64,000 nt of DNA from Candidatus Heimdallarchaeota archaeon (GCA_021399345.1 JAAFKI010000154.1:1-64000); one strand, 5' to 3'; shown: positions 35,202-62,152, counted from the stretch's first letter. A program made the numbers and translations. Notes: a model not told the origin generated them from the letters alone.

Positions 35202-35283
35202 GAAGCTAGCGCTACTAAGCTTGCCATATCATTAATAAGAATGCAACGTCTGAACCACCAAGCAGAGTAGGCAAGCTAACTTC
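35202..35283 (-). ncRNA. Putative small RNA copy A (GAAGCUAGC-stem family)
   Basis: 5' GAAGTTAGC pairs with 3' GCTAGCTTC (one G.U); TATA at 35305-35313; homologous loci at 56429 and 62097. Confidence 0.55.
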
Positions 35284-35354
35284 AGAAGGATATGAAGAAA
35301 AGAGTATAAAAACACAAAAAAATTGAAACAATAATTGTAATTAAGAAGGAAGGA

Positions 35355-35431
35355 TGGCGCCGCTGGTAGGATTTGAACCTACGACCGATCGGTTAACAGC
35401 CGATTGCTCCACCAGACTGAGCTACAACGGC
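35355..35431 (-). tRNA. tRNA-Asn(GTT), CCA encoded
   Basis: ATCGG-CTGTTAA-CCGAT anticodon arm, GGTTCAAATCC. Confidence 0.96.
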
Positions 35432-35503
35432 ATCCTTTTGGTTACATTCGTTCTACTTCCTTTTTCTTTTTAAACCTTTTTTTCTGTTCTCTAATTTTAT
35501 TAA

Positions 35504-36772
35504 CTAAGTTTTTTCTAGAGCATTGTAAACTAAATCAGTAATTCTGAAAGTTTCAATTGGAAGTATCCAATTATTGTCAACTGGGCAGTATTGTGTCATA
35601 ACAACCGTAACCAACTGATTTGTTGGATCTATTCTGAAAAGGACATTTAAAGCTCCAGCCCAACCATATTCACCAATAGCGCATTTATGCATATTTTCAG
35701 CTGTTTTAACTACTACACCTAGACCAAAACCAAATCCTTCATTTCGCTTAATTATCTCAGAATCTTCAGGTTGAAAGAATTGCATTTCTAGATAACTCTT
35801 ACCATCAGGTAATTGGTTTGATGACATCAGGTCAATTGTTTTCTTTGAGATGACTTTATTACCATTATACTGTCCGCCATTTAACATCATTATACAAAAT
35901 TTAAGATAATCTTCTAAAGTTGAAACCAAACCTGCTCCTCCAGACAAGAATATTGGTTTGTGGTTATAACCCTCTGCTATAGAATCAGTTATTTCAATTA
36001 AGTTGCTTTCCTGATCTTTTGTATATACTTCCACAAATCTATCTTGTTTTTCAAGAGGAACGTAAAAATCTGTATCCTTCATACCAATCTTATCAAAAAT
36101 ACGTTCTTTAAGAAATACGTCAAATGCCTTTCCAGAAAACTTTTCGATTAATAAACCCAAGACATCATGGCCAAAAGCATACCAGAAACGTGATCCTGGT
36201 TCTGAAATTAAAGGAAGACTCGCTAAACGTTTGCCAAAATTCTCTAAAGTTCCAATTCTTTGATGTTCTTCTAATACAGACTTTATTCTATTCTCGCCAG
36301 TAAAACCAAACTTCTCCCCATATAGTTTGTCAGCGGGTATACTAGGATAAAAACCATAGCTAAGTCCAGATGTATGTGTGAAAAGCTGTTTTATAGTTAT
36401 GGGATTCTTAATATCTTCTAATTCAATTTCACCCGTTTCATGGTTATATGATTTTAGTATTTTCATATTCTTGAACTCAGGAAGATATTTTTCTAATGGA
36501 TCATTTAACTCATATTTTCCCTCTTCGTGTAGTATTAATGCTGCTAAACATGTAATTGGCTTAGTCATAGAATGTATTCGGAAGATATCATCGAAGGCAA
36601 TAGAAATTTTATCTCCTTTGTCTTTCCAACCAAATTTGTTACAATAAACCAGATCTCCCTTCTTGTAAACGGCACATAAAATTCCTCCAGTATCATCATC
36701 ATCTATGTATTTTTGAAATTCAGATGTTAAATCTGTGAATGATTCTGGATTTCTTACTTCTATTTTCATCAA
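35504..36772 (-). CDS. Beta-lactamase-family serine hydrolase
   Basis: SMTK (SxxK), FTHTSG, PGSRFWY, GWAG. Confidence 0.92.
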   Translation of the reverse strand: MMKIEVRNPESFTDLTSEFQKYIDDDDTGGILCAVYKKGDLVYCNKFGWKDKGDKISIAFDDIFRIHSMTKPITCLAALILHEEGKYELNDPLEKYLPEFKNMKILKSYNHETGEIELEDIKNPITIKQLFTHTSGLSYGFYPSIPADKLYGEKFGFTGENRIKSVLEEHQRIGTLENFGKRLASLPLISEPGSRFWYAFGHDVLGLLIEKFSGKAFDVFLKERIFDKIGMKDTDFYVPLEKQDRFVEVYTKDQESNLIEITDSIAEGYNHKPIFLSGGAGLVSTLEDYLKFCIMMLNGGQYNGNKVISKKTIDLMSSNQLPDGKSYLEMQFFQPEDSEIIKRNEGFGFGLGVVVKTAENMHKCAIGEYGWAGALNVLFRIDPTNQLVTVVMTQYCPVDNNWILPIETFRITDLVYNALEKT

Positions 36773-36874
36773 AAATAATGTTATTTCTTCTTTTTTATAT
36801 CCTTTTGCCTAATTTTTTAGAATTTCTCATAGGAAGAATTATCAGCAAGGAACCGTCAGTTTACTAGAGTAAAT

Positions 36875-37549
36875 ATGGATATTAGTGCTCAGGAAGAGTT
36901 GTTTGAGAAGAATTGGGAGCATTATAGTAAAATTCTGTTAGAAGATAGAGTACCTCTTTTTGATGATAGTGTAATCTACTCTGGAAAAAAACTCTATGAT
37001 AAAAACAATCCTCCTTTTCTAGCCTCTATTGTTAAGGTTCCTCATTCCCTTTGTGAAAACCTCCAACAAATTCAAGCTGCTTTCGATAGGATTGATCACA
37101 GACATACTTATTTTCATCCCATATATTTTCACATTACTCTAAAAGAATTTGGCTGGGAGGACCAAGTAGAAATCAAGGAAATCAGTGAAAAAATGACAAG
37201 GGTTGCAAATAATTTTTCACCTTTTGAATTAGAAATCAAAGGAATTAATTGCTTTGAAAGAATCATTTTTGCACAAGTGTTCGATAAGAATCAGGTTCTA
37301 GAATCTATCTTTAATAAGATTTTTGAAGAGTTTCCACATTTGGAAAAATACTTCCCATTTTATATTCCCCACATATCTTTAGCTAGAATAGAAACAACTG
37401 AAGCCAGAAATTTAATTCATGTGATAAATGAAAAATATAGAAATATGGAAATTGGATTTATGCGAGTAGAAGATATTCAGATTGTAGCGGCTAGACCTTA
37501 TCTAACGGTTGGAAGGATAGATATCCGTGAGAAAATCAGTCTTGGATAA
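36875..37549 (+). CDS. 2H phosphoesterase (2'-5' RNA ligase family)
   Basis: FHITL and PHISL motifs. Confidence 0.88.
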   Translation: MDISAQEELFEKNWEHYSKILLEDRVPLFDDSVIYSGKKLYDKNNPPFLASIVKVPHSLCENLQQIQAAFDRIDHRHTYFHPIYFHITLKEFGWEDQVEIKEISEKMTRVANNFSPFELEIKGINCFERIIFAQVFDKNQVLESIFNKIFEEFPHLEKYFPFYIPHISLARIETTEARNLIHVINEKYRNMEIGFMRVEDIQIVAARPYLTVGRIDIREKISLG

Positions 37550-37610
37550 AAGATAGTAACAATCAAAATATTTTTTATACGAATATCATCAAAACTCCTT
37601 GCAAAGTATT

Positions 37611-37685
37611 GCCTCGGTAACTCAGTGGTAGAGTGATTGACTTGTAATCAATTAGTCGAGGGTTCAATTCCCTTCCGAGGCTCCA
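37611..37685 (+). tRNA. tRNA-Thr(TGT), CCA encoded
   Basis: GCCTCGG acceptor, ATTGA-CTTGTAA-TCAAT anticodon arm. Confidence 0.95.
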
Positions 37686-37706
37686 TCTTTTTCTTCTATT
37701 ACTTCA

Positions 37707-38240
37707 TTACAGTTTACTCTTTGCTTTTTCAATTATGTTTTGTATGAAATCTGATTTGCCTTCTGTATATTTTTCTCTATCATTTCCATATTTAAGAACT
37801 AATTTCTGTTTAAGTTCAGAATATTGTTCTACTTCTTTTGGATGTTTTCTCAAAAAATCTCTAAACAGAATATGTTTATCCCATTCATAATGACCTTTTA
37901 GCATAACATGAAGATGATGGGTTCTATAATTCTCTCCCCCTTTCACAAACATATGTCTATCTGGGATTCCCTGCTCTCCCCTATAGATAAAACCAACATT
38001 TTTTAGAGGAATAATGATTTTCTCAATATTATCAAGTGAATCAATAGCAACAGCGATATCTATTATTGGTTTAGCTACAGAGTTTGGAATGGCAGTGCTT
38101 CCAATGTGTTGGATATCAACTAGAAAATCAGCTATCACTGCTGACATTAACTCTTTTTCCTGTTTGAAAAAATCTTTCCACTGTAGATTATATGGTTTTA
38201 ACAGAACTGTACCACGTTTTAAACCAATCATCAAACCCAT
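37707..38240 (-). CDS. GrpB-family (UPF0157) nucleotidyltransferase-like protein
   Basis: HIGSTAIP...AKPIIDI, HHLHV, FRDFLR, YTEGK. Confidence 0.92.
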   Translation of the reverse strand: MGLMIGLKRGTVLLKPYNLQWKDFFKQEKELMSAVIADFLVDIQHIGSTAIPNSVAKPIIDIAVAIDSLDNIEKIIIPLKNVGFIYRGEQGIPDRHMFVKGGENYRTHHLHVMLKGHYEWDKHILFRDFLRKHPKEVEQYSELKQKLVLKYGNDREKYTEGKSDFIQNIIEKAKSKL

Positions 38241-38333
38241 TTTAAAAACAGTTTATTTAGATTTTTTCATCGCTCATAATAGCAAAATGATGATGACTCC
38301 CTCCCTTCGACAGAGACCTTACTTTGTTTGTTC

Positions 38334-38654
38334 TTATGAACTATCAGCTGTTACTATTTCCATTAATCCTAATATTTCGAGTAACTTTCTTTCTAAATCG
38401 ATTCCTACTACGCCTGCTAATGCTAAAGTACTGAGAAGACTCTCAATTAATTCATCCTCAATAGTTGGATCACATTCTAAACCTTCACAGTCATCTAATA
38501 TTTGGCTAGCAAAAGCATTCAACATTTTTTCTCCCATTATTCTGCTTGGAGTTTTTGGAATATTCATTACATCTAATTGTTTTACACTGTTTCTACTGTT
38601 AATGAGTTCAAGCAGTTTCTTTTGTGCCTCGCTAATTGTTACCATCATCATCAC
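38334..38654 (-). CDS. MazG-like helical protein (degenerate)
   Basis: TISEAQK...EDELIESL...LALAGVVGIDLE, resembling the MazG C-terminal pattern. Confidence 0.5.
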   Translation of the reverse strand: MMMMVTISEAQKKLLELINSRNSVKQLDVMNIPKTPSRIMGEKMLNAFASQILDDCEGLECDPTIEDELIESLLSTLALAGVVGIDLERKLLEILGLMEIVTADSS

Positions 38655-38824
38655 CTATTCTTCGGAGTTTTTCCTATTTATACAGAGATAATATTTACTT
38701 TTAAAATCATCTAATATATTTACTTAATGATTCATTGTTCCACAAGAAATCTAATAGAAAAAATTATTTTTTCCTTAGATGTGGATTCGTTAAGAAGAGG
38801 GGCTGAATCTCCGAAGAACCACCA

Positions 38825-38845
38825 TTTCCATTGGAAACTATGGGG
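38825..38845 (+). promoter_or_regulatory. Origin recognition box (ORB)-like motif
   Basis: TTTCCATTGGAAACTATGGGG matches the archaeal ORB pattern TCCAnnGGAAACnnnGGGG. Confidence 0.6.
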
Positions 38846-38888
38846 CGGGGCTTTAAACGGCTGAAAGACAACTAATCATTAAATTTAG

Positions 38889-38925
38889 GATTTTTGTCGG
38901 GAGTCTGTAAACTGATTTTTGTCGG
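38889..38925 (+). repeat. 12-bp direct repeat GATTTTTGTCGG, two copies at 25-bp period
   Basis: Copies at 38889-38900 and 38914-38925. Confidence 0.8.
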
Positions 38926-39051
38926 TAAGTGTAATACCAGCCTATTATCAAAAAAAGTAGTTTTCACTTAAATTTTCAAAGGTTTATACTAAAACAAATC
39001 TTTTCGATATCGAAATGTTAAAAAAAGGAGGAAGGGAAGACAATCCAACAT

Positions 39052-39127
39052 GGGCCAGTAGATCAGTTGGGAGATCGCATCGCTTGCACCGATGAGGCCT
39101 CGGGTTCAAGTCCCGACTGGTCCACCA
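39052..39127 (+). tRNA. tRNA-Ala(TGC), CCA encoded
   Basis: G3.U70 pair; CATCG-CTTGCAC-CGATG anticodon arm. Confidence 0.96.
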
Positions 39128-39193
39128 CCTTTACCTTTCAGAGTTAATGATTAAAGAAAGGTTTTTGTTTTCAAATAGAATAAGGATTTTGAA

Positions 39194-39919
39194 ATGATGG
39201 TTTCTGCAATTATTCCAGTCCATAATGAAGAAGGTAACGTTATACCTGTATACCGTGAACTAAAAGAGATATTGCAGAAGGTAACAACTGATTTTGAGAT
39301 AATCTTTGTAGACGATGGGTCGAAGGACACTACCTTGGATAAGCTTCTTTCACTTAAATCTAAGGAAGAAAAACTGCGTATTATTCAATTTAAAAAAAAC
39401 TATGGTAAAAGTGCAGCTCTTTCAGCTGGATTTGACAATGCAGAAGGAGATTCCATCATCACACTTGATGGAGATGGCCAAGATGACCCAAATAACATTC
39501 CTAATCTAATCAGTGCCTTAACAGAAGAATATGACTTTGTTTGTGGTTGGAGAGTTAAACGTAATGATAAATTTCTTAAAAAAACTAGCTCGAAAATTTA
39601 CAATTTTCTAAATAGGGTAATTAATCGAAGTAAAATCCATGATAATAATTGTATGCTGAGAATTTACAGAAAAGAAGCTGTTTCGGATTTAAAATTAACA
39701 AAAGGTGCACATAGATACATCCCAACAATTCTTACCAGTAAAGGTTTCAGAATTGCAGAAATAGAAGTCAATCATAGACCAAGATTAACAGGAAAATCAA
39801 GTTACGGTTTCAAACGGCTTTTTGTTGGATTCTTTCATTTATTCAGATTTCGTTCTTTTACTAGAATTAAGCAAAAGTCAGTATATGTAATAGAAAAGAA
39901 ATATGGTTTTGAGGAATGA
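39194..39919 (+). CDS. GT2 glycosyltransferase (DPM1/ArnC-like)
   Basis: IIPVHNEE, VDDGSKD, LDGDGQDDP. Confidence 0.92.
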   Translation: MMVSAIIPVHNEEGNVIPVYRELKEILQKVTTDFEIIFVDDGSKDTTLDKLLSLKSKEEKLRIIQFKKNYGKSAALSAGFDNAEGDSIITLDGDGQDDPNNIPNLISALTEEYDFVCGWRVKRNDKFLKKTSSKIYNFLNRVINRSKIHDNNCMLRIYRKEAVSDLKLTKGAHRYIPTILTSKGFRIAEIEVNHRPRLTGKSSYGFKRLFVGFFHLFRFRSFTRIKQKSVYVIEKKYGFEE

Positions 39920-39930
39920 TATCAAATAAT

Positions 39931-40920
39931 TCATACTAGCTTCTGATCTTTCATCCAGTTAAAGGCATCTTGAAAAGAATCTTTAATAGAATATTCAGGT
40001 TCAAAACCCACTATCTGGTTAATTTTTTCTAAGCTATATACTCTTGTCCTACTGAATTGATTTACTCTTCTACGGGATATTTTTGGAGTTGATTTCTTTA
40101 TTTTAGCCATTGTTTCACTAAAAACAGCTGCAGTTATCGCTAGTGGGAAACTTATTTCTTCAAATACAGGTTCTTTTCCAGTAATTTCTCCTGCCATTTC
40201 AAATAACTCCCGAGCAGTACAAGTTGAACCAATAACATGAAAAGCTTCACCATTAGCTTTTTCTGTAGCTCCACACATAACTAAAGCTCTAGCTACATCC
40301 TTATGATGAACAAAAGAAACAACAGCTTTACCAGTTCCAACAAGAGGTATCTTTCTTTCCTTCAGGAGGTAATTAAAAATTTTAGGTGCTACTTGTCTAT
40401 CCTTGGGGCCAACAATGTAAGGTGGTCTAACTGCTGAAGCAAAAAAACCATGCTCTCGTGCATACTTGAAAACTAATTTCTCGGCTATCCATTTAGTTTC
40501 ATGATAAGGGTGATCAGATTTTTTTGGATGATCCTCTTTTATTGGTTGATTTTTTACCTTGTAACCATAAATGCCAACTGTACTTATATGTAAGAATTTT
40601 TTCCCATTGTTCTCAATAAATGCTTCAAGCAAATTTTTTGTACCTGTCACATTAACATCGTAATATAATCTTGAGGGAATATTATCTCTAGCTTCTCCAG
40701 CAGCATTATAGACATCATCTATTCCACTTAATGCTTTTAGTAGAGATTCTTTGTCCGTTAAATCTCCTTTAACGAAACTGATACCTAACTCTTCTAAAGC
40801 AGGATATTTTTTGTCTGACCGAGTTAATGCTTTGATTTCTGTTTTTGGATATTCTTCTCTTAATTTCTTAGCAATAAAATATCCCACTGCACTAGTAGCT
40901 CCAGTTACCAATATAGTCAT
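39931..40920 (-). CDS. NAD-dependent epimerase/dehydratase (extended SDR)
   Basis: ILVTGAT, NVTGT.NLL, YHETK. Confidence 0.9.
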   Translation of the reverse strand: MTILVTGATSAVGYFIAKKLREEYPKTEIKALTRSDKKYPALEELGISFVKGDLTDKESLLKALSGIDDVYNAAGEARDNIPSRLYYDVNVTGTKNLLEAFIENNGKKFLHISTVGIYGYKVKNQPIKEDHPKKSDHPYHETKWIAEKLVFKYAREHGFFASAVRPPYIVGPKDRQVAPKIFNYLLKERKIPLVGTGKAVVSFVHHKDVARALVMCGATEKANGEAFHVIGSTCTARELFEMAGEITGKEPVFEEISFPLAITAAVFSETMAKIKKSTPKISRRRVNQFSRTRVYSLEKINQIVGFEPEYSIKDSFQDAFNWMKDQKLV

Positions 40921-41044
40921 TTTCTTCTATCTAAAATAAAACGGGTTCTATATATTTTTTTAGAGTGAAAAAGGACTAGAAGCTAAATTATTTTAACTTC
41001 TGTTAAAGCGAAACGCTTTTTTAAGCCGATTTTGTAACTAATTT

Positions 41045-42478
41045 ATGATAAAAATTTATAGCACTCTTACACGTCTACTTGAAGAGTTCAAGACTATTAA
41101 ACCTGGTGTTGTGAAGTGGTATAACTGTGGACCAACAGTTAATGGTCTCATGCATTTAGGCCATGCTAGATCTGCTATAGCCTTTGATACTATTCGAAGA
41201 TATCTTGAGTATAAAAAATACAAGGTGGTATATGTAATGAACTTCACAGATATCGAAGATAGAATGATCGAAGTAGCAAATAAAGAAAAACGAGCAGTAT
41301 TAGAGGTTGCTGAAGAATATTTAAACTATTTCCGACGAGATATGGCTAATTTAAATCTCAAAACTGCCACAGTACATCCTAGAGCTATGCTCCACATTAA
41401 CCAAATGATTGAGTTCATTGAGGGGTTAATAGAAAAAGGATATGCGTATGAGAGTAATGGGGATGTCTATTTTGATGTCAGAAAGTTCGAAGAATATGGA
41501 AAACTATCAAATCAGAAGTTAGAAAATGTTCTTCAAGAGGGAACAGAAGATACCAAAAATCCCAATAAAAGGTTTCCTGCAGATTTTGCACTATGGAAGA
41601 ATGAAAAACCAGGTGAACCAAGTTGGTCATCACCTTGGGGTAAAGGAAGGCCAGGCTGGAATCTAGAATGCTCTTGCATGTCCAGAATCTATCTTGGTGA
41701 CACTTTAGATATCCACAGTGGTGGTCAAGATCTCATCTTTCCTCATCATGAGAATGAAATTGCTCAATCTGAATCACTTACAGGAAAACCATTTGCCAAT
41801 TATTGGCTCCATAATGGTTACATCAATATCGATAAGGAAAAAATGAGTAAATCTCTAGGCAATTTTGTTAATATTGTGGATTTACTCCAACATTATTCTA
41901 CAGATGCTGTGCGTTTGTTTGTCCTTCAAACCCATTACCGTAGTCCAATCATTTTTACTGAGGATGCAATAGATCAAGCTCAAATAACATCGGACAGGTT
42001 GTTTGATGTTATTTTACTAACCAAGAATTATGCAACCGAAACAACAGTGAATAAAAGTGCTCTATCGGATTTAGATAAAGAGTTACTAGAAAAAATCACC
42101 AAAGCTAGAGAGGATTTTGTCAAAGCGATGGATGAAGATTTCAACACATCTAATGGTTTTGCTGTAGTCTTTGATTATTCTAGGGAAGTTAATGATTATC
42201 TTCGAAAAGCAGACCAAATTAATGGAGCTGTTATTAACAAAGCTGATGAACTATTCAATGAATTCAGATCAGTTTTCGGCTTATATGAAGATTTTAACAG
42301 TTACCTATCAATGGATTTAGTTGAAAAACTAGTTAAACTTCTTGTTGAAATCCGTGGTGAATATAGGAAAGAGAAGAACTGGGAAATGAGTGACAAAATA
42401 AGAGATGAGCTAAAGCATGCTGGTGTCACCTTAGAAGACAATCCAAAAAGAATTCTCTGGAAACTTAGTGAAAACTAG
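41045..42478 (+). CDS. cysS: Cysteine--tRNA ligase
   Basis: CGPTV, HLGH, GG.DL.FPHHENE, KMSKS. Confidence 0.97.
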   Translation: MIKIYSTLTRLLEEFKTIKPGVVKWYNCGPTVNGLMHLGHARSAIAFDTIRRYLEYKKYKVVYVMNFTDIEDRMIEVANKEKRAVLEVAEEYLNYFRRDMANLNLKTATVHPRAMLHINQMIEFIEGLIEKGYAYESNGDVYFDVRKFEEYGKLSNQKLENVLQEGTEDTKNPNKRFPADFALWKNEKPGEPSWSSPWGKGRPGWNLECSCMSRIYLGDTLDIHSGGQDLIFPHHENEIAQSESLTGKPFANYWLHNGYINIDKEKMSKSLGNFVNIVDLLQHYSTDAVRLFVLQTHYRSPIIFTEDAIDQAQITSDRLFDVILLTKNYATETTVNKSALSDLDKELLEKITKAREDFVKAMDEDFNTSNGFAVVFDYSREVNDYLRKADQINGAVINKADELFNEFRSVFGLYEDFNSYLSMDLVEKLVKLLVEIRGEYRKEKNWEMSDKIRDELKHAGVTLEDNPKRILWKLSEN

Positions 42479-42557
42479 GTACTTCCTCCTTTTTATTTTT
42501 AATTTCAGACAAAATAATCTAAAATGATTTATAGTCCATACTTAATTAACAAAGTTA

Positions 42558-42977
42558 ATGACTAGGATGTTTGGAACACCTGAAGATTACAAAGTATACA
42601 TGTACACTGCAGTAGGTATGGTACTTGCTGGTGTTGTAGCTTTTGTTGTTTTTCTGATAATTGGAATTGCAGCTTTGATTTCAGCAAGTATAATTACTAT
42701 CGGATGTGGTTTCACTATAGCTGCAGCAATGGGTTTTGGCTTTCTTAGAAAGAAGAAGAAGGACACTAACGCTGACTTCAAAATTACAATACTAATTAGA
42801 ATTCTGTTACTTCTAGCTTTTGCTGTGAGTACCTATTTAATCGTATTCGCAGGTTATTATGTAGAAACTGACCCATTCTCTACTAATATGCTTATCACTC
42901 TGACAATTGCACTTCCAATAGTTATTATATCACTAATTACTTGTGACCTATTTCTAAATCGAAAGAGGAATAATTAA
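42558..42977 (+). CDS. 4-TM membrane protein
   Basis: Four hydrophobic helices with a basic loop. Confidence 0.75.
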   Translation: MTRMFGTPEDYKVYMYTAVGMVLAGVVAFVVFLIIGIAALISASIITIGCGFTIAAAMGFGFLRKKKKDTNADFKITILIRILLLLAFAVSTYLIVFAGYYVETDPFSTNMLITLTIALPIVIISLITCDLFLNRKRNN

Positions 42978-44570: not shown

Positions 44571-44645
44571 ATATTGTTCTCTTCAATAAATCTATCTTTA
44601 TTTCTTAATCGTTAAAACTTATATTAACTTGTGAAGATAAATGGT

Positions 44646-45383: not shown

Positions 45384-45410
45384 GGGAAACCCTATAGGTT
45401 GTTATAGATA

Positions 45411-46202: not shown

Positions 46203-46432
46203 GAACTAACTATCCCTAAGTCATATCTAAATTTTATGCAGTGTATTGTTAATATATTTAGTGAAAGTAGAAAAATGCAGTGGAAAATAACTTAGGAGCT
46301 TTAGACTGTACAATTCAAAAGTGAATAATACTAAAATAATACGATAAACATATATTTATCCGGCAAAAAAGGCAGCACTTCAGCTGATGATGGAGAGAAG
46401 TTTCGTGTAGAAATTGTTATGTCACCAAATGG

Positions 46433-50085: not shown

Positions 50086-50090
50086 AGTTA

Positions 50091-50347: not shown

Positions 50348-50393
50348 GTTCTTGCCTTTAAATATCATTTTGCGGATTAGATAGTGAGACAAA

Positions 50394-52322: not shown

Positions 52323-52342
52323 GGGACCCACACAAACGACGG

Positions 52343-52486
52343 TTAAACGCCCCCTGGCAAGTTTAACCAAGTTTCATAACGTGCGTTATAAAATTCAAAT
52401 TTCTTCTGCTCTGCTTTATTCTCTAAGGTATACTTCCAATCCTTCTCAACTTTCTCCATTCTTGCTTTAGTCTTATTTTCATTCAT
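52343..52486 (-). CDS. 47-aa protein abutting the IS right end (not in the ORF track)
   Basis: MNENKTKARMEKVEKDWKYTLENKAEQKKFEFYNARYETWLNLPGGV; AGGTGAT SD; TATA at 52586-52594. Confidence 0.55.
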   Translation of the reverse strand: MNENKTKARMEKVEKDWKYTLENKAEQKKFEFYNARYETWLNLPGGV

Positions 52487-52727
52487 TATCTATCACCTAT
52501 ACTACTCACTAATTCATCTAATTTCAGATGCTAGGCTCATGTCACCAGCAGTGACTTTCTCCCTGTATCCTACAAGTAAGCTAGATATAAAAACACCAAA
52601 AACAAATTGCGAAGAACTGTTGAAAGTTATACTAGTATTTTCTTAATTCTAGAAATTGTCAAAGAACAAGCATTAAAAATCAAATGTTCCCATTTTTACC
52701 ATCAAAAATAATTCTGAGCTGAAATCG

Positions 52728-53723: not shown

Positions 53724-53747
53724 AAACCTATCTTTTACCATAGAAAT

Positions 53748-54539
53748 TTAAATAGTTTTTATTGTATAGATAGCAGATAATGCTGCTAGCCAACTCGTTT
53801 TTGGGTTGGTTGGTGAAGGGTTGTTCTCGAAAAGGAAATTATATTTTCCAACTTCAGATTCAATTTCGATTGCATGAATGTTTTTTGAAATCGATGGATC
53901 AGCGATTATTTCAACTAATGTTTTTTCAGGACCTAATGTTGAGAGAGCTAAGCGTGCAGCAACATTAATACTCCTTGGAAAATATGTAGCGGCTAGTTTA
54001 GCATTTCCTTTGAATATGACCACTGGTGAATGTTCGTTTAATTTGATGTTGTTTGATTCAATATAGCTGTTGTTCCTAAAGGCTCTGTTTGGTTTTCTAG
54101 TTTGGAGCTTAGCAGATTTTATGCCTACTAAGTTAATTGTTTCTACACTATCAAATCCACCAATAGCACCAGAGGGAAGAATAATGTTCTTTTTCTTTAT
54201 TTCAGTTAATTTTTGGTATTTAGAAAATAAACCAGGGAAAGATACGAAAGCACCAATACTCATAGGAACGAAATATTTGCCACTTCTTATTATTTCATCA
54301 AATACTTCAGCTACTACTTGTTGAACTGCACATTCTACAACAATATCACAATCTTGGAAATCAGTTACATGTTGCATTAGTCTGATTGAAGGATGTTTTT
54401 CAGCAACATCTTTCATTTTTACATCGTCAATATCATATACAGCTTGGATGGTCAGATTTTCATTTGCTTCTTCACTTACAGCATTCAGAATAGTAGTTCC
54501 TATGTATCCCAGTCCTATTAATCCTATCTTTTTTGTCAA
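53748..54539 (-). CDS. nadX: L-aspartate dehydrogenase
   Basis: GLGYIG, VVECA, SGAIGG.D, FP.SINVA, NPKTS.LAALS. Confidence 0.9.
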   Translation of the reverse strand: MTKKIGLIGLGYIGTTILNAVSEEANENLTIQAVYDIDDVKMKDVAEKHPSIRLMQHVTDFQDCDIVVECAVQQVVAEVFDEIIRSGKYFVPMSIGAFVSFPGLFSKYQKLTEIKKKNIILPSGAIGGFDSVETINLVGIKSAKLQTRKPNRAFRNNSYIESNNIKLNEHSPVVIFKGNAKLAATYFPRSINVAARLALSTLGPEKTLVEIIADPSISKNIHAIEIESEVGKYNFLFENNPSPTNPKTSWLAALSAIYTIKTI

Positions 54540-54558
54540 TGAATCATGCTCCTGAACA

Positions 54559-55542
54559 TTATCTAATACTCTCGTAATCAGCTACCCAGTCAGATGCTTC
54601 GTTTAATCTCTTTATTTCGTCTTCATCTAGTTTAACTTCTAAAGAAGCAACATTTTCTTCTAATTGCTCAACTGAATTAGCACCGATAATTGGGGCTGTT
54701 ATGAAGTCCTTTGCTAGTATCCAAGCAATTGCAACTTGTGTCATCTTAACTTCCTTGCTCTTAGCAATTTCCTTTACTGTGTCATGTATTTTCCATCTCT
54801 TTTCAGTAAAGTATCTCTTCTGTGCCCCTTCACTTCTTGGAGTATCTGGAAGAGGACCATCAGAAGAATACCTGTCTGTTAGGAAACCACCAGCTAGAGG
54901 ACTATAAGGAATGACACCAAGGCCAAATTTCTTGATTACATGTTCCATTTGATGTTCAACAAGCATTCTTCTGACAATACTGTAGGGTGGTTGAACTGTT
55001 TCAAAACGAGCATATCCATTCTTTTCGCTTACCCAGAAGGATTCTACCAACATCCAAGGATGTATATTTGATGCCCCTATGTAGTTTACTATTCCTTTTT
55101 CTACAAGTAGATTCATTGCATGTAATGTTTCTTCAATAGGTGTATCATTATCAAAACTATGAATCTGATAAAGGTCAATCCAATCAGTTTGCAATCTCTT
55201 AAGACTATTAGTAATTGCTTGATGTACGTGTCTTCGTGATAATCCTCGATCATTAATATCGTCAGACATGGCACCTCGAAGTTTAGTTGCAAGAATTAAA
55301 TCATCTCTTGTACTCCTATCATTTAACCATCTTCCAATTATTTCTTCAGTTTTACCTGCATGGCTGTTTTCAGCCCAGTAACTGTAAACATCTGCAGTAT
55401 CAAAACAATTGATACCTAATTCTAGAGCCCTATCCATTATCTTAAATGACTCTTCTTCGTCTACTCTCCATCCCATTTGCATAGTGCCTAGAACAATAGG
55501 TGATACTTTTATCCCTGTTGTTCCCAATCTTCTGTATTCCAT
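54559..55542 (-). CDS. Aldo/keto reductase
   Basis: DTADVY, ATK, IDLYQIH, PYSPLAGG. Confidence 0.95.
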   Translation of the reverse strand: MEYRRLGTTGIKVSPIVLGTMQMGWRVDEEESFKIMDRALELGINCFDTADVYSYWAENSHAGKTEEIIGRWLNDRSTRDDLILATKLRGAMSDDINDRGLSRRHVHQAITNSLKRLQTDWIDLYQIHSFDNDTPIEETLHAMNLLVEKGIVNYIGASNIHPWMLVESFWVSEKNGYARFETVQPPYSIVRRMLVEHQMEHVIKKFGLGVIPYSPLAGGFLTDRYSSDGPLPDTPRSEGAQKRYFTEKRWKIHDTVKEIAKSKEVKMTQVAIAWILAKDFITAPIIGANSVEQLEENVASLEVKLDEDEIKRLNEASDWVADYESIR

Positions 55543-55586
55543 AATGAAAGTTAATACAAGTTAGTTAAAAGAATTGTTTTTCTCTC

Positions 55587-55859
55587 TTAAATAGAGAATA
55601 TTTTTTTAATTGTAACTAGAATCTTTGTTAGAAGAGTTTCTTGCTTTTCTCCTTTTACTGCTTCTTTTGCCCAGTAATCTTGTCTATCGTGAACTAATCT
55701 GTGTTCACCTTTACAATGTGGGTGTAATGGCATTTTACATTTATTACAGATCGCCCAAGTTGCACCACAGGTCTTCTTTCCAGAATCTAAAGATTTTCCA
55801 CAATGCCCACATTTTCCCATTAACGGCATAGGTGGATATGCACAACAAACACTTATCAA
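55587..55859 (-). CDS. Small Cys/His-rich zinc-finger-like protein
   Basis: CGHC, C, CNKC..LHPHC...H...H. Confidence 0.55.
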   Translation of the reverse strand: MISVCCAYPPMPLMGKCGHCGKSLDSGKKTCGATWAICNKCKMPLHPHCKGEHRLVHDRQDYWAKEAVKGEKQETLLTKILVTIKKIFSI

Positions 55860-55872
55860 TATAGCGCAGATA

Positions 55873-56364
55873 TTAGAGGTTTATTATCACATCTTTTGCT
55901 CTCTTTCCGCTCATGTATTCAATATCGATTTTTCCTACAGCAACTCTAGAAATAGATTTCTCAGTTAATTGTGCCTTTTCAACTTCTTCTGGTTTATTAT
56001 CTAGTTTCCTTATCATGGCTTGTAAAGCAGTTTTCTTCTCCTCAAAATCTTCAATGAAAGTAACTTTTCCTTTGAATTGAGTTGTAGCATAAAGATGATC
56101 ACAAGAACCTTGAACGTAGCCTTCATCCATAAGTGCTTGGCCCCAAATATTGTTGTTGTTCTTAAGAATATCAATTTTCTTCCCCTCACTGGCACAATGG
56201 AAGTAAATACGATGTTGCTCAGGGTCATATCCATGACTTAAGGTCACTAAATAGGGAACATTGTCTTCACACATAGCAATAGTTATGTGTTTAACTGTTT
56301 GGAGAATGTATTTCATCTCTTCAATACTCTCTATTGCTTTTTCTTTACGTCTCATACCTCTCAT
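55873..56364 (-). CDS. Pyridoxamine 5'-phosphate oxidase-like (NimA) flavin-binding protein
   Basis: MRRKEK, PY.V, YFHCA.EG.K, MSGK. Confidence 0.9.
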   Translation of the reverse strand: MRGMRRKEKAIESIEEMKYILQTVKHITIAMCEDNVPYLVTLSHGYDPEQHRIYFHCASEGKKIDILKNNNNIWGQALMDEGYVQGSCDHLYATTQFKGKVTFIEDFEEKKTALQAMIRKLDNKPEEVEKAQLTEKSISRVAVGKIDIEYMSGKRAKDVIINL

Positions 56365-56428
56365 TTGAGTATCACTTGAAGAAAAAAATCTTCATACGTT
56401 ATATCTTTTTGGTAAAGGAGAAGAAAGT

Positions 56429-56504
56429 GAAGCTAGCAAGAGAAATGAAGGGGTGGAAGCAATGCGGAGGTGAAAATCACCAGGCAGATATATTAGCTAG
56501 CTTC
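56429..56504 (-). ncRNA. Putative small RNA copy B (GAAGCUAGC-stem family)
   Basis: Perfect GAAGCTAGC/GCTAGCTTC stem; TATA-like at 56526-56534, same spacing as copy A. Confidence 0.55.
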
Positions 56505-56588
56505 AGAATAAATACTGGTTTTATGCTTAAAAACCTAAAAAGAAGAATTGCTAATTAAAGGCAATGAATAATTTGAAGAAAGAAAAAT

Positions 56589-56677
56589 TGGAGCCCAGAG
56601 CGTGACTTGAACACGCGACAACAGGATTTCTGAGAATTCTCTTCAGTCCTGCGCTCTCCCAGCTAAGCTATCTGGGC
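56589..56677 (-). tRNA. tRNA-Phe(GAA) with a 13-nt intron (56628-56640), CCA encoded
   Basis: CAGGA-CTGAAG[AGAATTCTCAGAA]A-TCCTG; CTGA/TCAG central helix with 3-nt bulges (BHB-type) at position 37/38. Confidence 0.93.
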
Positions 56678-56797
56678 ATCCTTGTTATATCCTTTTTGTT
56701 CTTCTTCCCAATAAAAGTTTTTTGTTTCGTTTCTTTGTTTTTTTGTGAATGCTAACATATAATAATACCCAAGATTGACTTGATTTGATGATATATT

Positions 56798-57361
56798 ATG
56801 TCACAAGATCGTTATTATTCAAAAAAAGACTATAAAGGAGATTATTCTGCTTTTGGTACTGCTTTGGTTTTTACAATTGTTGGTATTGTGTCACTTGTTC
56901 TGAAGTACGCTGCCCCTGCCCATGATTTTTGGGGAATATCTAACTGGGGGTATTGGATGTTTATACCTGCCTTCTTCATTTTTATTGGAGCAATTAGTCA
57001 TGTTGATGCTGATCGAAGGATGAGAAACAACGTTCTTGCATCTGTTCAGAATCGTAGTGGTGCAGTAAAAATAGAAAACTTGGCCTCTGAAGCAGGAGTC
57101 AAACCACAACAAATTCTACGAATTCTAGTTGATTTACGTGTAAGAAATAACATTAAGTATAGTTATGATGCTAATACAGGAGAGATTCTGTTAGGAGAAA
57201 CAGTTTCATACGATAAAGCTCTTGAATTTGTTGCTCCCTTACCTAAGAAACAAGCTGAAGTTATCTTTCCCTCTGAAAAGGGAAGTTACTGTCCTTACTG
57301 TGGTCACAAACCTCCTGAAGGGTCTAAGTTCTGCGAAAGCTGCGGCTCTAACCTTGCTTAA
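56798..57361 (+). CDS. 2-TM protein with a winged-helix-like domain and C-terminal zinc ribbon
   Basis: Two TM helices; VKIENLASEAG helix; CPYCG...FCESCG. Confidence 0.8.
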   Translation: MSQDRYYSKKDYKGDYSAFGTALVFTIVGIVSLVLKYAAPAHDFWGISNWGYWMFIPAFFIFIGAISHVDADRRMRNNVLASVQNRSGAVKIENLASEAGVKPQQILRILVDLRVRNNIKYSYDANTGEILLGETVSYDKALEFVAPLPKKQAEVIFPSEKGSYCPYCGHKPPEGSKFCESCGSNLA

Positions 57362-57383
57362 AACTCCTTTTTCTTCATTTTTT

Positions 57384-58316
57384 TTATTTGTGGAAAGTTA
57401 AATGAACAACATCGTTATCATGTAGTTCGTAAGTTATTCCAACCCTTTTTTTTCTTCCAGTTGGACCACCTTCAAGGATTACAGCATCTTTGAATATGTC
57501 TATTTTGCTTTTACTTATTTTGTTTACAACATCTTCAACTATCACTGTATCGTTGAAAAACACTACAGGTTGATCTTGAATTTCATTAAATGAGTTCATA
57601 GTGAATATCCTTATTGGTTTGCTAATTTCAAACATGGTTTTCTTTATTTCATCAAGATTATTAACAAACACATTCTTCAAATTGTTATAGGATATAAGGC
57701 CTAAATTTTCCTTTTTTACCAAAAAAGTTGGAATTCTTCTTGGACTGGTTTGAGCAAAACCATCACCCAACCTTTTCTCGATTAATTCAATATTCTGCTC
57801 CTCTAACTCAGATAACACTATTGTAAAATCTTCAAAAGATTTACCTAGAATTAATAGGCAATCTGTAGAGTGTACTAACGCTAGAGTCGATTTGTCGTAA
57901 ATCCAACCTCCTTCGCTTATTGCAGGAAGCTCTACAAGTTGGAATTTTATTCCTTCATATTCTAAGGCACCATATTGTGGTTCTGTTGTAGTGTATTCAT
58001 AGTCTCCTACAGGGATTTCAGTGCCGCATAGATTGTTAATCAAAGTACTTTTACCACTATTTGTTGTACCTATTACAAGGATTTGCGGTGTTTCTTTTTT
58101 GGTTTTAGTGCTTTTTCGGGAAGCTTTTTTTGCTTGTTCTACTATCTCGATTTCATTTAATTCGCGTCTTAGTTTATCCTTTATTTTCCTATAGTCTCCT
58201 ACATCCCATTGTATTTCCTTTAGTATTTTTCTGATTTCTTTTGCTCTTTCTTCCCCTACTTTTCCTTTTAGAGCATCGTTTATTTCTTCATTAATTACGC
58301 TATAGGGTTTAGGCAT
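57384..58316 (-). CDS. DRG/OBG-family GTPase-like protein with TGS domain
   Basis: GTTNSGKST, YEYTT, C-terminal VG..YELHDNDVV; ATG at 58316 preferred (ORF track starts 58379). Confidence 0.85.
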   Translation of the reverse strand: MPKPYSVINEEINDALKGKVGEERAKEIRKILKEIQWDVGDYRKIKDKLRRELNEIEIVEQAKKASRKSTKTKKETPQILVIGTTNSGKSTLINNLCGTEIPVGDYEYTTTEPQYGALEYEGIKFQLVELPAISEGGWIYDKSTLALVHSTDCLLILGKSFEDFTIVLSELEEQNIELIEKRLGDGFAQTSPRRIPTFLVKKENLGLISYNNLKNVFVNNLDEIKKTMFEISKPIRIFTMNSFNEIQDQPVVFFNDTVIVEDVVNKISKSKIDIFKDAVILEGGPTGRKKRVGITYELHDNDVVHLTFHK

Positions 58317-58362
58317 TGTCCACGACCTGTTTTCATTTTGATATGTCTTGTTTGAGTGCTTA

Positions 58363-59235
58363 TTAACTTTCTTTCTCAATAGCTTTTGATACTAATCTTC
58401 CACTCAATTCCCAGAGATAATCTTGATTTTCTATAACTTTAGTCATTTTTGCAGTTTTTGTTTCCTTGCAGTCAGTAAGATATTTTCCAGTTACACCTTC
58501 TAAATCATTTGAAGCAGCTGCATAAACTGAAGTCTCTGCACCTTGTTCAGGAGTTCGACGATTAGGTATTAGATTCGACATTGTATTCATCCATTTTGGA
58601 AGTCCTTCTGTTGTCAATTGTGTCTTAATATGTCCCGGATTTACTGTAAATGCTGATACTCCCGTTCCTTCTAATTCTCTTACTAACTTATTGGTAAAAA
58701 GAACCATAGCTGTTTTAGAATTACTATAGGCTTGTTGTCCACTATATCTTTTTTCCAGTAATGGATCTTTCAATTTTATTTTGAAGAATTTGTGTATATC
58801 AGAAGAGAGATTTACAATCCTAGAGGGAGAACTCTTCCTCAACAACGGAAGCAAAAGCTTGGTTAGATAGAAGTGAGCTAAATAATTTACTGCAAAAGTG
58901 AGTTCAAATCCATCCTCAGTTACAGTTCTCTTCATTCGGAAAACTCCCGCATTATTTATCAGAACATGTAAACTTGAGTATTTCTTTAGAAACTCATCAG
59001 TAAACTGTTTTACTTCATTTAATGATGATAAATCACAGATTAGAAGATCAACATTCTGATTATTAGTTTTTTGAATAATTTCCTTACGAGCTGCTTCTCC
59101 TTTTTCTAGATTACGACAAACCATTACTAAATGAGCTCCTAGAGCAGCTATCTTTCTTGCTGTTTCTTTTCCAATACCTGTATTTGCTCCAGTTATCATG
59201 CAAGTTTTCCCATTTATCCAAGAGTTATTCGGCAC
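58363..59235 (-). CDS. SDR, retinol-dehydrogenase-like
   Basis: TGANTGIG, NNAG, YSNSK. Confidence 0.93.
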   Translation of the reverse strand: MPNNSWINGKTCMITGANTGIGKETARKIAALGAHLVMVCRNLEKGEAARKEIIQKTNNQNVDLLICDLSSLNEVKQFTDEFLKKYSSLHVLINNAGVFRMKRTVTEDGFELTFAVNYLAHFYLTKLLLPLLRKSSPSRIVNLSSDIHKFFKIKLKDPLLEKRYSGQQAYSNSKTAMVLFTNKLVRELEGTGVSAFTVNPGHIKTQLTTEGLPKWMNTMSNLIPNRRTPEQGAETSVYAAASNDLEGVTGKYLTDCKETKTAKMTKVIENQDYLWELSGRLVSKAIEKES

Positions 59236-59319
59236 AATATCACATCATAAAATGTTTCTGTACATTTATACCTATACGTTCAAGTAAAAACTTTATCCGA
59301 ATCTTTTATTAATAACTCA

Positions 59320-60540
59320 ATGTCTACTCTTTTCATGAGTTCAGAAAAATCAAAAGTCTATTTCGGTTCTGTTCAACATGGAAGAAATTCCGCTTTTGCT
59401 TCTTTTGCTGCAAAGGTTGACAAAATCACAGAACTTTTACTTGAAGAAACACCCATTGAGAAGAAGGATAAGGTTGCTGTTAAAATGCACCTTGGTTTCA
59501 ACGATGGTTATCAAACTGTTCCTGTTTTTTTTGTTCGTAAAATAGTAGAAGCTGTTAAAAAACGAGGGGGATATCCCTTTGTTACAGATAATCCCACTTC
59601 TGTTTATAATGCGGTCAACAGAGGGTACACTCAAGAGACATGTGGTTGTCCTATTATTCCAATAGCAGGTGTAAAAGATGGTTATACTACTCCTGTAGAA
59701 GTTAATTACAAAGGAATAGATACACTAGATCTTGCTGGAGCTTTGAAAGACGCAGATGTTTTAGTTGATTTGTCCCATGCTAAAGGTCATGGAGCTTGTG
59801 GTTATGGTGGTGCAATCAAAAATCTAGCCCTTGGTGGTTATTCAGGTCCAACCCGTTGGAGGAAAATCCATGGGGCATCCCACGTTGATGAATATTGGGA
59901 CAAAGCTAAAGGCAATCCAGAACTAGCAAAGAAGCTTGTTGAATCATGTCCTTACGGTGCCCTTCGATATGATGAAGAAAAGGATGACCTCAAAAGAAAT
60001 TATCACGACTGTCGCCAATGTATGACCTGTTTACAAGTTGATGGAGGTCTAGGAGCCGTTAAACTTCCACGTGAAAGCTATACTGCATTTAATGAAATGA
60101 TGGCAATCGCAACAAATGAAGTATTGAAAACCTTTGATCCTGCCAAAGTAATGTATATCAATTTCTTGACACAAATAACCATTTATTGCGATTGTATGGG
60201 TTTAGGCCAACCACCATTTATTAATGATATTGGTGTTGTTGGCAGCAAGGATATTGTTGCAGTTGAAACAGCCACACTTGATTTAATCAAAAAGGAAGAA
60301 ATAATAGAGAAAAACATTCCTCCTTACTTCAAACATGTCAACCTTAATCCCGATGAAGATCTTCACCCATTCACAAGAGTTCATGGACCATACAAAGATC
60401 CTTACGAAACAGTTGTTTTCGCAGAAAAACTGGGCTTGGGTACTTCCAAGTATGAATTAATTGAAATCTTATCTGCTGAAGAAACGATAAAGATGAAACC
60501 TCCAGACAAAGTGTTTGAAGGCGAACCCACCTTCTTTTAA
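59320..60540 (+). CDS. DUF362 Fe-S protein
   Basis: VAVKMH.G, SHAKGH...GGAIKN, CRQCMTC, CDC, DIG...SKD.VA. Confidence 0.88.
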   Translation: MSTLFMSSEKSKVYFGSVQHGRNSAFASFAAKVDKITELLLEETPIEKKDKVAVKMHLGFNDGYQTVPVFFVRKIVEAVKKRGGYPFVTDNPTSVYNAVNRGYTQETCGCPIIPIAGVKDGYTTPVEVNYKGIDTLDLAGALKDADVLVDLSHAKGHGACGYGGAIKNLALGGYSGPTRWRKIHGASHVDEYWDKAKGNPELAKKLVESCPYGALRYDEEKDDLKRNYHDCRQCMTCLQVDGGLGAVKLPRESYTAFNEMMAIATNEVLKTFDPAKVMYINFLTQITIYCDCMGLGQPPFINDIGVVGSKDIVAVETATLDLIKKEEIIEKNIPPYFKHVNLNPDEDLHPFTRVHGPYKDPYETVVFAEKLGLGTSKYELIEILSAEETIKMKPPDKVFEGEPTFF

Positions 60541-60553
60541 TTTTAATCTTTCT

Positions 60554-60937
60554 TTATTTTTCCTTTTTCTTTCCAAGCCATGTTGCAATTAAATCAGTTA
60601 TAGGACCATAAGCTATACCTGCCACAAAGGTTGTAAAGCTGAGATGAGGATCCATTAGCAGAACAGCTGCAGAAGTAATTAAACCAAAAATTGTTCCTCT
60701 AATTCCAGCATTTAACCATTTTTGCCATTGTTCTCCTTTGATAATTGTTATTCCATCAGCTAATCCAATGAGCATTCCTAAAACAACTCTCATTGCCCAA
60801 ATACCCATAAGGTAAACAATATTTTCAGCATAAGTTCCAGGAATACGTTGTCCCACACCAATTATACAAGCTACTCCTAATATGGCGCCAGTAAGTGTAG
60901 ATATCCAAAGACGTTTGTAATTAACCATTTTTCTCAA
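60554..60937 (-). CDS. 4-TM membrane protein
   Basis: Four hydrophobic segments. Confidence 0.75.
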   Translation of the reverse strand: MRKMVNYKRLWISTLTGAILGVACIIGVGQRIPGTYAENIVYLMGIWAMRVVLGMLIGLADGITIIKGEQWQKWLNAGIRGTIFGLITSAAVLLMDPHLSFTTFVAGIAYGPITDLIATWLGKKKEK

Positions 60938-61047
60938 CTTTACTTTATTGAAAGTAGCATAAAAATTCTACGTATAGACAAGAGTTTACAAAAGAGCTTG
61001 CAAGTCACATCGAATATTTTTTAAATCTTCATTACACTTTTGACCAA

Positions 61048-61986
61048 GTGAGCAAAATGGATTTGAAAGGTAGATCACTTCTATCATTAGAGGATTTCAC
61101 AGCAGATGAAATCCGTTTTCTTCTAGATGAATCTAAACGTTTGAAAGCTGATTTTAAGGCTTATAAAAGAACTAAACCACTTTCTGGTTTAACTTTGGGG
61201 ATGATTTTCCAGAAACGTTCAACTCGTACTAGAGTTTCAACAGAGGTTGCAATGTATAACCTAGGAGGGCATGCAATTTTCCTGAGTTCAGCAGATATTC
61301 AACTAGGCGCCGGTGAATCTATTAAGGACACATCCCGTGTTCTTGCAAGAATGGTTAACGGCATACTTGCGCGAGTTTATGCACATGAAGATGTTGCAGA
61401 GTTAGCTAAACATTCTACTGTTCCAGTTATCAATGCACTCTCAGATAAATACCATCCTCTCCAGATTCTTGCTGATCTTCTTACTATTGAAGAACATAAA
61501 GGCAAACTAGCTGGTTTAAAACTTGCATGGGTTGGTGATGGAAATAATGTTTGTAATTCATTATTAATTGGATGTGCAAAGATGGGTTTAAACATGTCAG
61601 TAGCTACACCAAAAGGTTACGAACCACCTAGTGATATTGTGGGAAATGCTGAACATTATGCAGAGGAAACTGGTGCCGAAATCACAATAACCAATGATGC
61701 TATTGCAGCAGTAACAAATGCAGATGTTGTTGTAACAGATACATTCATCTCTATGGGAGAAGAAAAGGAAGCAGCAGCTAAGCTCAAGGCTTTTGAGAAC
61801 TATGTTATCACCGAGGAACTTTGTGCTAACGCTAAATCTGATTATCTCTTTATGCACTGTTTACCCTACAAACATAAAGAAGCAACAGAAGAAGTTTTTG
61901 AAAGTGGAAATAGTGTAGTTTTTGATGAAGCTGAAAATAGATTACATACAGTTATGGCTGTTCTAAACGCTTTAATGGGAAGTTAA
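61048..61986 (+). CDS. argF: Ornithine carbamoyltransferase
   Basis: STRTR, HPLQ, GDGNNV, SMG, HCLP, EAENR. Confidence 0.95.
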   Translation: MSKMDLKGRSLLSLEDFTADEIRFLLDESKRLKADFKAYKRTKPLSGLTLGMIFQKRSTRTRVSTEVAMYNLGGHAIFLSSADIQLGAGESIKDTSRVLARMVNGILARVYAHEDVAELAKHSTVPVINALSDKYHPLQILADLLTIEEHKGKLAGLKLAWVGDGNNVCNSLLIGCAKMGLNMSVATPKGYEPPSDIVGNAEHYAEETGAEITITNDAIAAVTNADVVVTDTFISMGEEKEAAAKLKAFENYVITEELCANAKSDYLFMHCLPYKHKEATEEVFESGNSVVFDEAENRLHTVMAVLNALMGS

Positions 61987-62096
61987 AATTCCTCCTTTTT
62001 TTCATATTTTTAAACCATTTTCATAAACCATAATTAACTCAACTACATTGTTTTATACTGTCAACTTCTCAAAACAGAATATAGGTTGAGATGGAG

Positions 62097-62152
62097 GAAG
62101 CTAGCAAAAAGTGCCTTTATGAGAATTATGTTAACGTTGTCTTGCTAGCCTC
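62097..62152 (-). ncRNA. Putative small RNA copy C (GAAGCUAGC-stem family)
   Basis: 5' GAGGCTAGCAAG pairs with 3' TTTGCTAGCTTC (G.U pairs); TATA-like at 62175-62183. Confidence 0.55.

Follow-up and report, generated by a model that had tools for sequence, protein, structure and literature searches.

A lineage-restricted family of paralogous small non-coding RNAs with a conserved 9-bp clamp in an Asgard genus and its sister genus

Three loci in a 64,000-nucleotide stretch of DNA from a Candidatus Heimdallarchaeota archaeon (GCA_021399345.1, JAAFKI010000154.1:1-64000; the whole stretch is referred to as the window), here termed A, B, and C, are paralogous genes of a small non-coding RNA (sRNA) family restricted to one Asgard genus and its sister genus. 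All three lie on the minus strand, and each specifies an RNA whose two ends pair in a 9-bp clamp around a variable loop (Table 1). Asgard archaea are the closest prokaryotic relatives of eukaryotes, and to our knowledge almost nothing is known of their regulatory RNAs; literature searches found no description of this family in Asgard archaea. The family is recognizable from sequence by (i) a fixed promoter distance, (ii) an 18-nt clamp, and (iii) a G-poor loop, and it is multi-copy and positionally stable across a deep genus. An earlier note on the window, written from the sequence, had placed A, B, and C between open reading frames (ORFs) and reported an interior common to A and B (TCTGCYTGGTGRTT and GCATT); the intergenic positions, the common interior, and all coordinates and sequences given there for the three elements are correct.

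A constant clamp behind its own promoter

The clamp, GAAGCUAGC/GCUAGCUUC, joins the RNA end to end in nine base pairs. Across an alignment of 80 copies, which is also the basis of the promoter, box, and flank counts given below, 99.4% of clamp cells are paired and the helix is continuous, with no bulge. Compensatory changes fall in three pairs and amount to 12 cells: A-U to G-C at pair 2 in six copies, G-C to A-U at pair 8 in one, and C-G to U-A at pair 9 in five. One-sided changes number 41, and 37 of these yield G.U or U.G pairs while four yield mismatches. Together with the compensatory changes, this ratio upholds the earlier claim of selection on an RNA helix. It also confirms the proposed orientation: the wobbles become C.A mismatches on the opposite strand, so the RNA is read from the minus strand. 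Conservation extends to the bases themselves, as a tally from pair counts gives just 65 non-consensus bases among the 1440 of the clamp, whereas RNase III in the same genomes falls to 50% identity and the loops of different locus types are unalignable. These counts show that selection acts on the clamp at two levels, the helix of the RNA and the sequence itself.

A DNA-level origin has to be weighed against this. The arms form an inverted repeat that contains the palindrome GCTAGC, and several copies lie near contig ends, in keeping with a miniature inverted-repeat transposable element (MITE) with 9-bp terminal inverted repeats or with paired sites for a DNA-binding protein. Such an origin is extremely improbable, since the one-sided changes produce G.U pairs on one strand only. 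Target-site duplications, named in the earlier note as the mark of a MITE, are absent; the 3-nt flanks match in three of the 80 copies and the 4-6-nt flanks in one. Both the MITE and the DNA palindrome were therefore rejected on the strand-specific wobbles, the unrelated interiors of paralogues, the recurrence of copies at the same chromosomal places across species, and a promoter present on a single side at a constant spacing.

That promoter is the second constant feature. In A, B, and C, the G of the TATA element precedes the first base of the RNA by 30, 30, and 31 nt, as previously reported. In 52 of the 80 copies the TATA hexamer has its first T at -29, and in 77 that T falls between -27 and -31, a regularity that agrees with the earlier description of separate transcription units. 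Base +1 is G in all copies and base -1 is T in 63; the placement of the TATA box predicts a transcription start on the stem's first G or on an adjacent base. A pyrimidine-rich tract, also noticed earlier, occupies the 12-nt 3′ flanks of A, B, and C, and the 12-nt tails of the family as a whole are 86% pyrimidine and 0.6% G. One account of archaeal termination describes a reliance on U-tracts and aCPSF1 (PMC8716108).

The 3′-terminal sequence GCTAGCTTC occurs four times in the window against 0.28 expected, a count that 0 of 100 shuffles reach. This excess, together with the paired pattern in relatives described below, makes the family more than a chance resemblance. A covariance model of promoter, clamp, and tail scores A, B, and C at 71.8, 81.8, and 82.9 bits, respectively, and a search of the window with filters off found no further family copy beyond these three.

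Distribution and relation to known RNA families

The genome of the window (G000; 199 contigs, 88.6% complete) contains five intact copies, namely A, B, C, and two on other contigs. A sixth copy, of type E, is truncated on its 5′ side: promoter and 5′ arm are gone, and what survives is the end of the loop with the 3′ arm GCTAGCTTC. Convergent to the 23S rRNA gene, it stands about 88 nt from the 3′ end of that gene; intact E copies occupy the same place, 88 nt from the 23S 3′ end, in genomes G013 and G024. Gene order is likewise retained for A-B-C, which lie within 27-38 kb in G013, G009, and G011, and orthologues of A are present in at least six genomes.

The strict paired pattern is found in 18 of the 24 other genomes of the genus and in none of 16 genomes of other families, while a reversed-pattern control gave no match in any of the 41 genomes searched. 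In each of the other 24 genus genomes the covariance model detects 1-6 copies; at E<=0.01 it detects none in 22 genomes from 12 other genera of the order. With a degenerate pattern, 400 genomes of the phylum stayed at the control level outside the genus, the sister genus excepted. There, one genome (G042) has a single copy with the canonical clamp, TATA element, and tail, and another (G041) has two 48-nt copies with a compensated clamp, GAAGCGAG/CUCGCUUC. A search of relatives had been proposed in the earlier note, and further copies are indeed present in both the genus and the sister genus. RNA length across the family is 48-88 nt.

Two clamp alleles coexist in the same genomes. The second, GGAGCUAG(C/U)...(G/A)CUAGCUCC, that is GGAGCUAGY/RCUAGCUCC, differs from GAAGC... 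by the change of pair 2 from A-U to G-C, and genome G001 carries three near-identical 66-nt copies of it (Table 1). Two genomes have D3 and F members in tandem, each with its own TATA element and with clamps about 58-61 nt apart. The corresponding model matches are only 7-10 nt apart, because the end of the first comprises the clamp and a 12-nt tail and the start of the second comprises 40 nt of promoter. The D copy of G000 lacks the TATA region of its orthologues. Its divergence starts 13 nt upstream of the clamp, 91 nt from the contig end, and it scores 52.9 bits with the covariance model against 74-79 for the orthologues; the loss is either a rearrangement or an assembly join.

Table 1. Features of the sRNA loci, their relatives, and neighbouring genes. 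Locations are window positions unless a genome, contig, or locus is given.
Feature	Location	Strand	Remarks
sRNA A	35202..35283	minus	82 nt, GAAGTTAGC...GCTAGCTTC
A arms	5′ 35283-35275; 3′ 35210-35202	minus	5′ GAAGUUAGC; 3′ GCUAGCUUC
A loop	35266-35253 (motif)	minus	64 nt, contains UCUGCUUGGUGGUU
TATA element of A	35305..35313	minus	GTTTTTATA; its G at -30
3′ flank of A	35190..35201	minus	CUUUUUCCAUCU; pyrimidine-rich, likely termination tract
sRNA B	56429..56504	minus	76 nt, GAAGCTAGC...GCTAGCTTC; arms GAAGCUAGC and GCUAGCUUC
B internal hairpin	56481-56469	minus	GGUGA-UUU-UCACC
B anti-Shine-Dalgarno-like sequence	56473-56466	minus	UCACCUCC
TATA element of B	56526..56534	minus	GTTTTTAAG; its G at -30
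3′ flank of B	56417..56428	minus	ACUUUCUUCUCC; pyrimidine-rich
sRNA C	62097..62152	minus	56 nt, GAGGCTAGC...GCTAGCTTC; arms GAGGCUAGC and GCUAGCUUC, G3.U pair
C loop	62131-62122 (core)	minus	38 nt; core ACAUAAUUCU
TATA element of C	62175..62183	minus	GTTTTTAAA; its G at -31
3′ flank of C	62085..62096	minus	CUCCAUCUCAAC; pyrimidine-rich
Type C constant core			A(C/U)AUAAUUCU; 15 distinct orthologue sequences, one C-to-U change, flanks vary
Type D/F constant core			UUAUCC(C/A)CC
Type G constant core			ACGAUYCCCUUCGU hairpin and CCUGAAACCUAUUCUCCA; hairpin-loop UCCCCU
Type E constant core			AGAUAACAUUUUAGUCG
Further intact copy	G000 C192:45105-45168	minus	
Further intact copy	G000 C144:24422-24493		variant clamp GGAGCUAGU/GCUAGCUCC
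5′-truncated type E copy	G000:C199:~33000-33049 (L185)		outside window
Second-allele copies	G001:C1:695359-695424, C1:700809-700874, C2:44392-44457; G008:C88, C91; G000:C144:24422-24493		
Tandem D3 and F members	G004:C53:15094-15327 (L002); G007:C190:4443-4678 (L189/L039)		
Region upstream of the G000 D copy	G000:C192:45169-45259 (L055)		without TATA region of orthologues
tRNA-Asn(GUU) gene	35355..35431	minus	upstream of A; neighbour only
Intron-bearing tRNA gene	56589..56677	minus	upstream of B; neighbour only; Rfam tRNA 54.6 bits
RNase III gene	G000:C180:31524-32246 (L275:1492-2217)	minus	bacterial-type, 241 aa
MoaD/ThiS-like gene	L008:1593-1895 (G011); in G000 adjoins C192:45105		~93-101 aa
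Long 23S genes	G016:C65:1287-5521; G020:C11:2216-6643		

The family matches no entry in Rfam (release 15), which the earlier note had named as a check: at gathering thresholds the window gives only five tRNAs, and the 18 member loci searched at E<=5 match nothing but tRNAs, the end of a 23S rRNA, and, outside the elements, a single miRNA entry by chance. Nor do the elements carry the boxes of the archaeal guide RNAs, again in agreement with the first reading. The C box RUGAUGA occurs in 0 of the 80 copies in the first 20 loop nt with one mismatch allowed, the D box CUGA in 0 of 80 in the last 12, and ACA within 8 nt 3′ of the stem in 0 of 80. The absence of a cloverleaf also stands, as neither ARAGORN nor the Rfam tRNA model calls the elements, and none of the 38 tRNAs of G000 starts with GAAG, GGAG, or GAGG, as a stem common to a cellular tRNA would. 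The family thus resembles archaeal C/D and H/ACA sRNAs in its small size, many paralogues, TATA promoters, terminal stem, and short variable antisense elements, but it has no C, D, C′, or D′ boxes, no ACA, no evident K-turn, and no significant conserved complementarity to rRNA.

Y RNAs (RF00019 and bacterial Yrl) are similar in that their 5′ and 3′ ends pair in a stem whose sequence is conserved between paralogues and between species, their loop is variable, and they are paralogous. The Asgard stem differs from theirs in being a perfect 9-bp duplex that lacks the bulged helix bound by Ro, and the family has no tRNA-like module and no Rfam match. The comparison with Y RNAs made in the earlier note is further weakened by the finding of no TROVE gene (PF05731) in G000, a genome that is 88.6% complete; the same profile matched in the Deinococcus and Bacteroides controls. 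A search for the major vault protein (PF01505) gave no match in G000, but its control matched in no genome either.

Variable loops and possible functions

Loops measure 34-70 nt and contain 10.7% G and 23.5% C. Minimum-energy folds retain the clamp and leave most of the loop unpaired; that of A is closed by the 9-bp stem. The variable interiors described earlier are borne out, as the loops of paralogues are unrelated, and members of one locus type keep a short core unchanged in an otherwise drifting loop (Table 1). In B, UCACCUCC equals the core of the 16S 3′ end and is partly held in the GGUGA/UCACC hairpin, which is compensated to GGUGG/CCACC in one orthologue (L032). The Shine-Dalgarno (SD) consensus of G000 is AGGTGAT. 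A strict C-rich motif is present in 42% of loops against 20% of shuffles, and only in B, D/F, G, and diverged A orthologues; types A, C, E, H, J, and K are without it. The loop motif UUCUC, considered as a family-wide feature, did not exceed the shuffle null.

Judged from sequence, there is about an even chance that these RNAs are sibling base-pairing sRNAs with a clamp recognized by its sequence. The clamp would protect both ends from exonucleases and would provide a docking site for a sequence-specific factor, while the pyrimidine tract would end transcription. The constant loop cores would serve as seeds for pairing with purine-rich segments in other RNAs (ACAUAAUUCU in C, UUAUCC(C/A)CC in D/F, UCCCCU in G), and in some members, for example B via UCACCUCC, the seed may pair with SD sites. 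RNase III, which is present order-wide, could cleave the resulting sRNA/target duplexes. Given cores that pair with purine-rich RNA, the family would act as sibling antisense regulators. The earlier note had pictured sRNAs with a handle and a guide or cargo loop; the separate promoters, the helix, and the variable interiors of that picture hold, its protein-binding handle is a suggestion drawn from the invariance of the clamp sequence, and its guide or cargo role for the loop is conjectural.

By analogy, the nearest functional counterparts would be the bacterial sibling sRNAs Qrr1-5, OmrA/B, LhrC1-5, and csRNAs, which are likewise paralogous and separately promoted and share a constant module within each genome. 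These RNAs presumably act on mRNAs by pairing via short single-stranded seeds, and their shared module is usually the seed or a terminator hairpin. In contrast, what the Asgard siblings share is a clamp joining the RNA end to end, and their presumed seeds are different; the family is also archaeal, with a TATA promoter and no Hfq-type terminator. As described in one account, the cuckoo (CcsR, alpha-r14) RNAs of Alphaproteobacteria keep a constant loop motif, CCUCCUCCC, on stems that vary, and they resemble the Asgard family in being multi-copy and in displaying a pyrimidine-rich anti-SD-like sequence in their loops (PMC4615179). The Asgard family is their mirror image, with a constant stem and a variable loop. 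A family of C-rich anti-SD sRNAs (RsaE/RoxS, 6C, and cuckoo type) would be expected to carry an unpaired C-rich motif complementary to the SD sequence in every member, unlike the Asgard family with its approximately 42%. Its conservation pattern is the reverse of that of most sRNA families, the scaffold being constant and the presumed business end variable, and it therefore predicts a sequence-specific partner that could be retrieved with a short defined bait. If recovered, this partner would open a first way into post-transcriptional control, or into an RNA-protein machine, in the lineage. If the clamp is only a stabilizer, the family would be an ordinary sibling sRNA set.

Several results weigh against base-pairing siblings with a recognized clamp. 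Window positions 55500-62500 were found only in DNA runs (marine sediment, cold seep, vent) and in no RNA run, and the transcript ends and abundance are predictions. Seed complements are enriched neither in the genome (AGAATTATGT, 25 against 27 expected) nor at start codons (1 of 67), and complementarity to 16S, 23S, tRNAs, and neighbour genes scarcely exceeds chance, if at all, and does not persist in diverged orthologues. The anti-SD-like motif occurs in less than half of the loops, so SD masking explains some members at most. Searches for TROVE, Piwi, and RNase III proteins gave no candidate clamp-binding protein. Finally, the 80-copy alignment was gathered with a consensus-favouring model, and the clamp invariance is somewhat overstated for that reason. 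A single 12-nt complement of B was seen, inside a 20-codon ORF.

The RNase III gene of G000 is of the bacterial type, with an ERLEFLGD motif and a double-stranded RNA-binding domain (dsRBD) at 53 bits. RNase III is present in 36 of 47 genomes and 12 of the 13 genera of the order, and the dsRBD family has no match in five archaeal control genomes. Being order-wide, RNase III does not track the sRNA family.

The failure of target searches to find an RNA target would also be expected of ribonucleoprotein scaffolds or decoys that act without base pairing, like Y, vault, or protein-titrating RNAs. In these, the clamp would bind one protein, and the pyrimidine-rich loops would bind or sequester others, for example of the KH or Sm type. 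Conservation of the clamp sequence goes far beyond what pairing by itself would demand, and the C/U-rich loops and tails resemble ligands of many single-strand RNA-binding proteins. Scaffolds are nevertheless a minority possibility, if a serious one: a different 9-15-nt core in each locus type fits pairing better than it fits a protein ligand common to all, G000 yielded no TROVE gene, and no partner protein was found.

A constant handle and a variable short core in several paralogues is also the layout of a guide RNA family. The RNAs could then serve a new RNA-guided enzyme, with the clamp as handle and the core selecting an rRNA, tRNA, or mRNA site for modification or cleavage; in three genomes one type is placed 88 nt from the 3′ end of 23S, which would be in keeping with this. 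Such a role is quite improbable, as complementarity to 16S and 23S reaches 9-10 nt, approximately the chance level; most of it lies outside the cores or else disappears in diverged orthologues. C/D and H/ACA boxes are absent, and the Argonaute link raised in the earlier note was weakened by the finding of no Piwi gene. Among the candidates tried and rejected, the longest perfect complements to 16S and 23S were 9-10 nt, with an RNAduplex z of approximately -3.3 at best. The fits of the A/B motif CUGCYUGGUGR to 16S CCACCAGGCA and of the D core to 23S GGGGAUAG were lost in diverged orthologues, and the pairing of the B loop with tRNA-Asn via AUUGCUUCCACC (z -3.3) was not retained in distant B orthologues.

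Another reading, which appears unlikely, makes the clamp the handle of a dedicated lineage-specific RNA-binding effector that is programmed by the loop cores against different nucleic-acid targets. If true, this would be a new Asgard RNA-guided system unrelated to C/D, H/ACA, CRISPR, or Argonaute guides, and the coexistence of GAAGC... and GGAGC... clamps could reflect two forms of the effector, one for each allele.

Genomic neighbourhood and further observations

Most locus types face a convergent gene, either one for a protein or that for 23S rRNA. Approximately nine types are convergent with the downstream gene and two to four are co-directional, the B and G types being co-directional with their neighbour. 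In most convergent types 10-40 nt separate the end of the stem from the stop codon, and at C up to about 120 nt. The D, D2, D3, and F forms are all convergent to one MoaD/ThiS-like gene, 7-36 nt from its stop. The D/F core, UUAUCC(A/C)CC, is complementary to GGNGGAUAA, the Gly-Gly-stop end of that gene; the pairing is a perfect 9-10 bp in four genomes and weaker elsewhere, and loops from other loci score equally on the same target. For base-pairing siblings, the end of this convergent ubiquitin-like gene would be a weak lead as a target of the D/F core. The protein is ubiquitin-like and ends in ...IIPF(I/V)(S/A)GG.

This arrangement could also mean that the loci are cis elements at gene ends, acting by antisense overlap with the 3′ end of the neighbour or as a read-through barrier. 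The tail-to-tail position of about nine locus types, most of them 10-40 nt from a stop codon, and the constant proximity of D/F copies to a gene end that their core complements would fit such a role. It seems quite unlikely all the same, because the B and G types are co-directional with their neighbours, complementarity to the neighbour gene across the whole 150-nt flank is not above shuffles, loops of other loci do as well, and a conserved clamp sequence would be left without a role.

The genes beside the sRNAs are ordinary metabolic genes. The earlier note had remarked on adjacency to tRNA genes; A and B do lie downstream of such genes, but this is not a trait of the family. For the intron-bearing tRNA gene upstream of B, ARAGORN gives a four-base 'aaga' anticodon, a miscall. 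It is probably tRNA-Phe(GAA) with a short intron after position 37, the anticodon arm having been read by eye. Beside the OTCase gene in other genera, no C-type counterpart was seen, and gene order there is not conserved.

Two further observations concern the genomes at large. G000 encodes two eukaryote-type actins (434-447 bits); together with 23S genes of 3.4-4.4 kb in its relatives and its occurrence in marine sediment, seep, and vent metagenomes, this fits an Asgard archaeon. The 23S rRNA genes of some members of the genus are 4.2-4.4 kb long against 3.4-3.6 kb in others, which suggests large expansion segments or introns.

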